A stretch of 64,000 nt of DNA, from contig OZ220089.1 in assembly GCA_964291625.2 (NCBI GenBank), positions 96,001 to 160,000 of the forward strand. The letters run 5' to 3'. The position numbers and the translations under genes are program-made. The DNA comes from Candidatus Latescibacterota bacterium. GTDB taxonomy: Bacteria > Latescibacterota > UBA2968 > UBA8231. Below, one piece after another: positions 31,295 to 31,777 of this stretch; positions within the stretch are counted from its first letter, which is position 1, and every line of letters begins with the position of its first letter. The notes beneath the pieces are model-generated. The model made no database searches. It saw nothing but the letters and a program-made list of their open reading frames with translations, and was not told where the DNA came from.

Positions 31295-31777
31295 TCAATC
31301 CTCGTTCAGCCGGCGCATGATCTCGTCGGTCAGACGCTGCACGAGCGCCTCTTCCTCGCGGTCGGCGGCGGCGCGGCGATTGCAGCCGCCGCAGCCGACG
31401 TTGGGCCTACCCGCCGCCTCGGCCCGGTACACGGCGCACTCGGAGCAGGAGGAGGGCTCCACGAACCCGGAGCCGAACTCCTCGGTCTTGCAGCCGTAGG
31501 GGCGGTCGGGGTGATCGCAGCGTCCACGGGCCAGGACTCCGCCCTCGGCGCCGGGAGGCAGCACCTCGGCAACCGCCTCCGCCGGCGCCGGTCCGGACCC
31601 GCCCCGTCCGGGCGACTCTCCCCGGGTCAGCCGCACCCCGTGGCTGCGCAGGTAGTCCCACCCGGTGGGCGTCACCACCGCCTCGGTTGCCACCGACACC
31701 TCCTGCTGGCCCGCGTGGCGGGCGCGCAGGATCTCCTCGGTGACGACCGTCTCGGAGATGTGCAGCCGACCAGCCAC
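31295..31777 (-). CDS. BMC-associated Cys-rich protein with C-terminal encapsulation-peptide-like helix
   Basis: N-terminal VVTPTGWDYLRSHGV module; CDH..GC..CSEC..CGGC; ends EEEALVQRLTDEIMRRLNED. Confidence 0.75.
   Translation of the reverse strand: MAGRLHISETVVTEEILRARHAGQQEVSVATEAVVTPTGWDYLRSHGVRLTRGESPGRGGSGPAPAEAVAEVLPPGAEGGVLARGRCDHPDRPYGCKTEEFGSGFVEPSSCSECAVYRAEAAGRPNVGCGGCNRRAAADREEEALVQRLTDEIMRRLNED

Follow-up and report, generated by a model that had tools for sequence, protein, structure and literature searches.

The window, a G+C-rich stretch of 64,000 nucleotides from the genome of a Candidatus Latescibacterota bacterium, contains a compact bacterial microcompartment (BMC) operon on its minus strand. 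Listed from the head of the locus, with EP denoting an encapsulation peptide, its genes are:

36023..37348, minus strand, LytB/IspH paralogue, head of the locus
35714..36016, minus strand, BMC-P
about 35457..35723, minus strand, BMC-P inside a long spurious ORF
35170..35460, minus strand, BMC-P
34616..35173, minus strand, two-domain BMC protein
34336..34602, minus strand, BMC-H
32901..34325, minus strand, acylating aldehyde dehydrogenase (AldDH) with N-terminal EP (Pfam PF00171; hydrophobic moment 0.69)
32580..32897, minus strand, BMC-P
31870..32583, minus strand, PduL-type phosphotransacylase (PTAC) with N-terminal EP-like segment (Pfam PF06130)
between PduL and the next gene, minus strand, 30-codon BMC remnant ORF
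31295..31777, minus strand, gene of a 160-aa Cys-rich protein, the subject of this analysis (ORF list; GTG start at 31777, stop codon 31295-31297)
30712..31290, minus strand, BMC2a, two-domain BMC shell gene immediately downstream (Pfam BMC x2)
29561..30712, minus strand, BMC4, four-domain BMC shell gene whose start abuts the BMC2a stop (Pfam BMC x4)
28343..29548, minus strand, DHDPS-family (class I) aldolase, 401 aa (Pfam PF00701, 1.4e-59)
27224..28324, minus strand, DAO-family FAD oxidoreductase
26202..27098, minus strand, second DHDPS-like gene

The domain counts of BMC2a and BMC4 sum to six, as in one hexagonal tile, which we record as a thought only. The aldolase consists of an N-terminal module (residues 1-50, nucleotides 29399-29548), a linker (residues 54-87) and a DHDPS domain from residue 80. 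The Cys-rich protein is likewise divided into parts, delimited here with AlphaFold2 (AF2) models and conservation:

31613..31777, minus strand, N-terminal alpha/beta module, residues 1-55 (AF2 pLDDT 86-96; hhalign against the aldolase module and against EutT)
31526..31612, minus strand, linker 1, residues 56-84, Pro/Ala/Gly-rich (AF2 pLDDT 46-64)
31376..31525, minus strand, Cys-rich region, residues 85-134, with C87, C96, C111, C114, C129 and C132 (conservation counts; AF2 pLDDT 46-68)
31298..31363, minus strand, C-terminal amphipathic, EP-like helix, residues 139-160 (AF2 helix; hydrophobic moment)

Homologues of the Cys-rich protein form 109 clusters at E<=1e-3, and syntenic loci were found in 32 relatives. 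Across the homologues linker 1 varies between 15 and 56 residues and linker 2 between 5 and 24; about half of the chain in the window is flexible linker. The nearest named public records are Gemmatimonadaceae and 'Latescibacterota' MAGs. Scans against Pfam (E<=10) and NCBIfam returned nothing except a chance-level match to TIGR02536 (E 0.29), and the best hits of a PDB sequence-profile search, PDCD5 (E 0.11) and PsaN (E 0.32), were both taken as chance. Foldseek gave no match in the PDB at E<=1e-3, the best result of the VIA wide fold search (Cas1 N-terminal domain, Z 6.1) lies under the tool's stated background of 7-8, and the ESM atlas feature search gave no match at or above 0.9, with a cluster of EutQ fragments at rank 14 (score 0.78) serving as a lead only.

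The protein has nevertheless been in print since 2021, and its three observed features are not new. In Supplementary Data 2 of the BMC locus catalogue by Sutter et al. 2021 (Nat Commun 12:3809, PMC8217296), MUF2 loci are described as containing, between BMC-H and BMC-T genes, an uncharacterised protein with a predicted C-terminal EP and a middle part of ~60 aa with six conserved Cys; its N-terminal domain recurs in a class I aldolase (pfam00701) encoded nearby. The same description gives the main locus an AldDH and a PTAC, double BMC fusions and 'very unusual quadruple linear fusions' of BMC domains, and places a pfam00596 aldolase with a BMC-H in a satellite locus. The window protein fits all listed features (module, six Cys, C-terminal EP, gene position), and the window has the AldDH, the PTAC and the double and quadruple fusions; it differs in that the upstream BMC pair has shrunk to the 30-codon remnant. 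The satellite is also present in the same genome, on contig C2, where a BMC-H adjoins a class II aldolase that ends in a peptide very like that of the Cys-rich protein. Because satellite and locus features both match the catalogue, the window is a further MUF2 locus. Contig C1 has, at 3.586 Mb, a solitary BMC-H that is extended at its C-terminus. The label 'ACI', considered for the locus, is wrong; it denotes an Acidobacteria type with other enzymes.

Within the searchable literature, MUF2 is mentioned only by the catalogue and its preprint, and the catalogue entry itself assigns no function, does not connect the protein with EutT or EutQ and contains no phyletic analysis. Our finding of the protein thus repeats a published note; what is added is the refutation of an obligate-adaptor role and two points not found in the literature searched, namely that the N-terminal module is related to the N-terminus of EutT and is widespread as a domain associated with BMCs, and that in these loci it is genetically tied to the BMC2a-BMC4 pair.

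Cys-rich region and C-terminal helix

Conservation of the Cys residues was scored on 106 non-identical full-length homologues. The six Cys singled out in the preliminary description of this DNA are all kept in 92 of the 106 and are in that sense conserved. Individually, C96 is present in all 106, C111 and C114 in 101 each, C132 in 100, C129 in 99 and C87 in 98, its position being taken by Tyr in seven homologues and by Phe in one. The two CxxC pairs stand 14 residues apart in the window protein and are both missing in five homologues, which retain the module, the G-C...F-G-S-G motif and the helix. That motif, G-C-x-[TD]-[ED]-[ED]-F-G-S-G-[FY], is invariant and has a single occurrence genome-wide; G95, F101, G102, S103 and G104 never vary among the 106. 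Since this motif (G-C-x-T-E-E-F-G-S-G-F) outranks four of the six Cys in conservation, the region suggests a binding motif shaped by a metal or a disulfide. The Cys-rich middle probably forms a small element stabilised by a metal or a disulfide, and metal binding by it is plausible. A structural Zn or a redox-sensitive disulfide is possible, and either would be compatible with the linker model developed below.

A stronger form of this idea would make the protein a metalloprotein cargo that carries Fe-S or Zn and acts within the compartment in redox chemistry or electron transfer, cofactor recycling being one example. The retention of all six Cys in most homologues, the spacing of the two CxxC pairs and the absence of an alcohol dehydrogenase from the window speak for it. 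We nevertheless consider it improbable, as neither a ferredoxin, a rubredoxin nor another metal-cluster family was matched in Pfam or NCBIfam, the PDB sequence search ended at the chance-level E of 0.11, and the five homologues lacking both CxxC pairs keep module, motif and helix. Fe-S and Zn-ribbon families were likewise absent among the Pfam, NCBIfam and PDB sequence matches, and the AF2 model of the Cys region is too low in confidence for a fold comparison. Further evidence against a metalloprotein cargo comes from genomes with an equal shell cassette and aldolase, which manage without the protein, and from BMC2a, whose sole invariant Cys (C138) appears, by sequence, to lie within a strand and not at the pore loop. 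On the same grounds a PduT-like Fe-S pore in BMC2a was rejected.

The more specific proposal that the protein is an electron carrier substituting for a missing alcohol dehydrogenase in NADH recycling finds no support: a 160-aa chain that is half linker has no NAD- or flavin-binding part, and no such domain was matched in Pfam or NCBIfam. Its premise is correct for the window, which has no alcohol dehydrogenase; four Fe-ADH genes lie elsewhere in the genome, with no EP evident on any of them.

At the C-terminus, residues 139-159 are modelled as a helix with AF2 pLDDT 88-91, so that the chain ends in what is taken to characterise an EP, a terminal amphipathic helix (~15-20 aa) on a flexible linker. 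Its best 15-mer has a hydrophobic moment of 0.70, next to 0.69 for the N-terminal peptide of AldDH, which bears out the earlier comparison of the two, and it closely resembles the peptide at the C-terminus of the class II aldolase in the satellite locus.

The N-terminal module and its relatives

The resemblance between the N-terminus of the Cys-rich protein and the extension of the aldolase, originally noticed by eye, reflects true homology. Pairwise similarity is marginal (BLASTP, residues 5-64 with 2-59, 32 % identity, E 0.007); in the profile-profile comparison that had been suggested as a check, the two module alignments match over 49 columns with an hhalign probability of 99.2 % (E 8.4e-20). 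An HMM of the first 55 residues of the Cys-rich family matches 26 of 26 aldolase orthologues at 28-55 bits. Searched against the 66,062 six-frame ORFs of the 5.9-Mb genome, it recovers only the Cys-rich protein (94.9 bits) and the aldolase (32.3 bits, E 2e-7), and the reciprocal HMM of the aldolase N-terminus recovers only the aldolase (94.1 bits) and the Cys-rich protein (37.6 bits, E 5.9e-9), all remaining ORFs in both searches having E of at least 0.01.

The joint module alignment is nearly gapless, with T9, L13, T32, P33 and D37 (alignment numbering) invariant; among homologues of the Cys-rich protein the invariant module residues are T13, L17, T36, P37 and R44. AlphaFold2 predicts a beta-alpha-beta-alpha-beta topology for both copies, at pLDDT 86-96 over residues 1-55 of the Cys-rich protein and 72-91 over residues 1-50 of the aldolase, followed in both models by a disordered Pro/Ala-rich linker (pLDDT 28-42 for aldolase residues 54-87). 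In AF2 and moment analysis alike, the aldolase N-terminus is thus a folded module plus a disordered linker, and the earlier statement that this enzyme has no N-terminal encapsulation helix is correct.

Beyond this genome, a module profile built from 47 sequences was scored against 1.84 billion representative proteins and gave 912 matches at E<=1e-3 (83 at E<=1e-10); the module has no match among Pfam models. The best 150 of the 912 comprise 84 RpiB-like proteins, 25 of the Cys-rich type, 10 of the aldolase type and 31 fragments. The RpiB-like proteins (200-270 aa) begin with a canonical EP; after a linker follow the module, at about residues 45-100, and a C-terminal domain that resembles RpiB and matches PF02502 weakly. 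Where the module is internal (91 proteins), an EP-like pattern occurs within the first 35 residues in 79 cases, which indicates that EP and module coexist in one chain and are not redundant. The Cys-rich protein shares this combination with the RpiB-like proteins, whereas the latter have the EP first, the reverse order, and lack a Cys-rich region. One RpiB-like gene (L052) lies inside a BMC locus; another (L049) has no BMC gene within 10 kb in a search with a reference BMC set. When the module alignment was used to look for longer proteins, only relatives of the Cys-rich protein and the aldolase were among the matches listed.

A second group of relatives is found in ethanolamine utilisation. 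E. coli K-12 EutT aligns with the module over its residues 4-45 (hhalign 86.7 %, E 4.3e-6) and is matched by the module HMM at 22 bits (E 3e-4 among 66,411 ORFs). The EutT/TIGR02536-type pattern T...L...(V/I/L)TP(S/T)(A/G)..(D), within ~45 aa at a chain terminus, is present in the Cys-rich protein, and the TIGR02536 match, weak there, reaches 3.5e-13 in other module carriers; one EutT/TIGR02536-like protein (P0146) bears the module at both ends. EutT and the Cys-rich protein hence have homologous N-terminal modules and differ in the remainder, which in EutT is a corrinoid adenosyltransferase. The literature searched yielded no passage on the function of the EutT N-terminus.

The relation to EutQ is weaker. 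Residues 4-42 of EutQ align with the module at an hhalign probability of 20.9 % (E 1.1e-3) and score 10-12 bits by HMM; the EutQ profile was shallow, as a search for diverse EutQ N-termini gave near-identical E. coli sequences only. Run over the 349 ORFs of the E. coli eut region, the module HMM matches just two proteins below E 1, EutT (E 1.6e-6) and EutQ (E 2.6e-3), in each case at the extreme N-terminus, and the first 50 residues of the two align with each other without gaps (BLASTP E 0.021). EutQ resembles the module in its ~45-residue N-terminal beta-alpha-beta-alpha pattern and in the positions of the T...TP motif, and departs from the Cys-rich protein in having two further, EP-binding helices (H3/H4) and a cupin domain in place of a Cys-rich region and an EP of its own; the cupin domain of the EutQ family (PF06249) has no match in the Cys-rich protein even at E<=10 in Pfam. 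A statement that EutT and EutQ have a module in common was not found in the literature searched, taken without the supplements of PMC12487888 and PMC11585597.

EutQ is of interest as the relative for which binding has been described. According to PMC12487888, Salmonella EutQ attaches to the shell at EutM/EutL through residues 9-41 (H1/H2) and to cargo EPs through residues 62-99, and residues 1-99, a monomer, are enough to target GFP to the compartment; deletion of the segment corresponding to the module separates shell from cargo. This last report weighs against reading the module as a regulatory or ligand-binding domain common to unrelated BMC enzymes, with the Cys-rich protein as a sensor or chaperone that uses it. 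Such a reading would accommodate the fusion of the module to enzymes of unrelated chemistry and its compact, confidently folded structure, which is no mere peptide. Against it, the module matches no known ligand-binding domain in fold, and the carriers examined, the RpiB-like gene L049 apart, are linked to BMCs (BMC loci of the Cys-rich protein and the aldolase, the eut operon for EutT and EutQ, the locus L052, and the EP-like N-termini of 79 of 91 internal-module proteins). We regard a regulatory role as very improbable.

Phyletic pattern and shell gene company

The distribution of the module was surveyed by applying its profile to 168 genomes of the phylum, with doubtful cases inspected and proteins classed by open-frame length (about 135-300 aa for the Cys-rich type, about 386-532 aa for the aldolase type):

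58 genomes, both the Cys-rich protein and the module-bearing aldolase
7 genomes, Cys-rich protein only (G099, G100, G101, G104, G106, G111, G112)
20 genomes, aldolase only (16 in one family, 2 in another family, 2 incomplete)
36 genomes, just one module protein, of a further and mostly RpiB-like type
47 genomes, no module match

Genomes G106, G111 and G112 of the second class consist of 1-2 contigs and are 91-93 % complete, and five of the third class (G056-G060, within the 16-genome family) are single-contig and 97-100 % complete. The presence of closed genomes in these single-protein groups makes the absences credible; in the five closed aldolase-only genomes, a full-length profile of the Cys-rich protein found nothing except the aldolase's own module. 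The surveyed genomes are related and not independent, so that these counts stand for few evolutionary events.

The pattern bears directly on the adaptor function first proposed for the protein, in which its module would pair with the aldolase module and its C-terminal peptide would piggy-back the EP-less aldolase into the compartment. Several observations are in keeping with such an arrangement: the module is found in exactly these two proteins of the genome, the two genes are three genes apart, 58 of the 85 genomes that encode at least one of the proteins encode both, and the aldolase has no EP of its own. Against module-module recruitment stand, however, the 20 genomes that keep a module-bearing aldolase without the Cys-rich protein, the 7 with the converse and the 36 with a single module protein of other type, and the reported monomeric state of EutQ 1-99 (PMC12487888) also argues against it. 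Because the aldolase is kept without the Cys-rich protein, it cannot in general depend on the latter for encapsulation, and because each of the two occurs alone and many genomes have one module protein only, the module would have a partner other than a second module. We consider the adaptor reading unlikely.

Gene order points to the adjacent shell genes as candidates for that partner. A comparison of 33 loci (the 32 relatives plus the window) places BMC2a, then BMC4, downstream of the Cys-rich protein gene in all 33. BMC4 is followed by the aldolase in 27 loci (one of them with BMC4 split into two ORFs), by the DAO oxidoreductase in 4 and by a contig end in 2. Upstream the order is looser, with BMC-H preceding the gene in 21 of 33 loci, its place in the window being taken by PduL and the 30-codon BMC remnant. 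Genomes that have the Cys-rich protein only show the order Cys-rich protein-BMC2a-BMC4-DAO (loci L015, L021, L024, L027, L050), and genomes that lack it have the aldolase in a three-gene cassette, BMC2a-BMC4-aldolase, away from a main BMC locus with two BMC-H and three BMC-P genes. Genomes of the latter kind also have a single long-form LytB, adjacent neither to the cassette nor to the main locus, and on this account the idea that the LytB/IspH paralogue needs the Cys-rich protein as electron donor was dropped.

A search for BMC4 across the 168 genomes found it in 83, all of them among the 85 with the Cys-rich protein and/or the aldolase, and in none of the 83 remaining genomes, which have neither. 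The two of the 85 without a BMC4 match are fragmented assemblies (85 % and 58 % complete). This constant company of module proteins and the BMC2a-BMC4 pair fits docking of the module on the tile or tiles formed from them, and falls short of proof; the co-occurrence is largely co-inheritance of one operon in related genomes and again amounts to few independent events. RpiB-like module proteins occur in genomes without BMC4, from which it follows that BMC4 is not the general partner of the module and that other shell proteins must serve there.

The Cys-rich protein as a candidate shell-cargo linker

To our knowledge, the tethering of cargo to shell is understood in few microcompartments only: carboxysomes, Pdu and, since 2025, Eut via EutQ. 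Our preferred reading is that the Cys-rich protein is a shell-cargo linker, EutQ-like in action and not a member of the EutQ family. It is the only protein of the organelle to bear both tags, the module being otherwise found on the EP-less aldolase and the EP on AldDH, PduL and the class II aldolase, and its gene is placed in the midst of shell genes, like the scaffold genes of other BMC loci. We assign this reading a probability of about 0.4, held at that level by the weak relation to EutQ, for which alone among the relatives binding data exist.

Module homology, residue conservation, helix character, gene linkage and phyletic pattern are as observed above, and from them we infer each binding step of the following mechanism. 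The protein would serve a MUF2-type metabolosome as a small component of its structure or assembly, and would be equipped with two different address elements. Its N-terminal 55-residue module would be a BMC docking domain, common to the aldolase, EutT, the RpiB-like family and probably EutQ H1/H2, and its C-terminal helix an EP of the type borne by AldDH, PduL and the class II aldolase. The module may dock on the shell, most likely on the tile or tiles of the adjacent BMC2a and BMC4, and the C-terminal peptide may join the EP-mediated cargo core, in which case the protein would hold cargo to shell in the manner of EutQ in Eut compartments. The aldolase, with its own copy of the module, would find that docking site independently of the Cys-rich protein. 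The Cys-rich element, between module and peptide, could present the G-C-x-T-E-E-F-G-S-G-F motif to a partner. The linker model leaves this Cys region, the protein's most distinctive part, without a defined role.

Broader, and in our judgement rather doubtful as a whole, is the idea that BMCs possess a second kind of address tag besides the EP, widespread and so far without a name: the ~50-residue module, which would serve as a folded docking domain in EutT, EutQ, the Cys-rich protein, the MUF2 aldolase and RpiB-like cargo. In MUF2 compartments it would recognise an asymmetric six-domain tile of BMC2a and BMC4, and the Cys-rich protein would be a dedicated, possibly redox- or metal-switched, shell-cargo linker. 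The relation to EutT and the tie to BMC2a-BMC4 together make a testable hypothesis. Were the module a general docking domain, the mechanism described for EutQ would extend to uncharacterised compartments of abundant soil and sediment phyla, the encapsulation of EP-less enzymes such as the aldolase would be explained, and engineers would gain a second, orthogonal targeting tag.

Other shell-cargo linkers named in PMC12487888 are CcmN, CsoS2 and PduB residues 1-37. The Pfam and NCBIfam scans of the Cys-rich protein gave no sequence relation to CcmN, CsoS2 or PduB; the likeness is one of design, all three being, like the Cys-rich protein, built of several parts joined by flexible linkers, with a peptide at one terminus that binds shell or cargo, and having their genes next to those of the shell.

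Shell genes of the microcompartment locus

Adjacent shell genes BMC2a and BMC4, together with two smaller features of the same locus, lie at the following positions:
29561-31290, minus strand: BMC2a and BMC4, with two and four BMC domains, respectively
31781-31873, minus strand: a 30-codon ORF between PduL and the Cys-rich target
about 35457-35723, minus strand: a fourth BMC-P (EutN-like) gene with a weak BLAST match to EutN

BMC2a adjoins BMC4 in all 33 loci (the window and its 32 relatives), and its stop abuts the BMC4 start; their domains sum to six, the count in one hexagonal tile. 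Across the 168 genomes surveyed in the phylum, BMC4 turned up in 83 of the 85 that encode a module-bearing target or aldolase, and in none of the remaining 83.

The start of the 30-codon ORF overlaps the PduL stop; its front resembles a BMC-domain N-terminus, its end the C-terminus of BMC-H. The same slot is filled by one or more BMC genes in 22/33 related loci: in 21 of these BMC-H lies directly upstream of the target, and in the other a two-domain BMC gene does; PduL is directly upstream of the target in L001-L004 as well. The ORF looks like the remnant of an in-frame deletion. The fourth BMC-P gene is concealed in the tail of a spurious 837-aa ORF, between BMC-P genes at 35170-35460 and 35714-36016, and matches EutN at 42 bits and 39% identity.

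The aldolase and the genes flanking the locus

Three further features, all on the minus strand, belong to the aldolase or to the ends of the gene cluster:
28343-28480, minus strand: aldolase C-terminal tail (residues about 357-401), beyond the DHDPS domain
26202-28324, minus strand: DAO-family FAD oxidoreductase and second DHDPS-like gene, after the aldolase
36023-37348, minus strand: long-form LytB/IspH homologue, heading the BMC operon

The whole aldolase is far better conserved among relatives than the target (68-92% versus about 40-90% identity). Its tail is disordered in the predicted model, and C368, C383, P384, T386, P389 and P390 within it are invariant across 24 orthologues. In most related loci the aldolase is followed by the same oxidoreductase and second DHDPS-like gene, a trio reminiscent of hydroxyproline or D-amino-acid catabolic clusters that could give a clue to what the aldolase branch acts on.

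In 25/33 loci the BMC operon begins with a long-form LytB/IspH homologue. The second LytB of the source genome is canonical and lies outside the BMC operon (C1:2135632-2136462); in five genomes from another family that lack the target, the sole LytB is of the long form and is not adjacent to their BMC loci. Directly past the BMC locus (23207-25877), a gene for a FeoB N-terminal GTPase and two DtxR-type iron-repressor/FeoA fusion genes sit on opposite strands.

The module in another family, and satellite loci

Among the best 150 module-profile matches, P0156 and 83 other representatives form a large family (200-270 aa) in which an encapsulation peptide at the N-terminus is followed by a linker, the module as in the target and an RpiB-like domain that contains the motif C-L-A-N-R. 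One member (L052:9709-10437) lies inside a BMC locus that also holds AldDH, PduL, a class II aldolase, and BMC-H and BMC-P genes.

The source genome has two satellite loci:
C2:605514-609041: L039, with a class II aldolase (PF00596) adjoining a BMC-H
C1:3585999-3586490: a lone BMC-H

The L039 aldolase has a C-terminal encapsulation peptide much like that of the target, and the lone BMC-H is extended at its C-terminus by about 75 aa.
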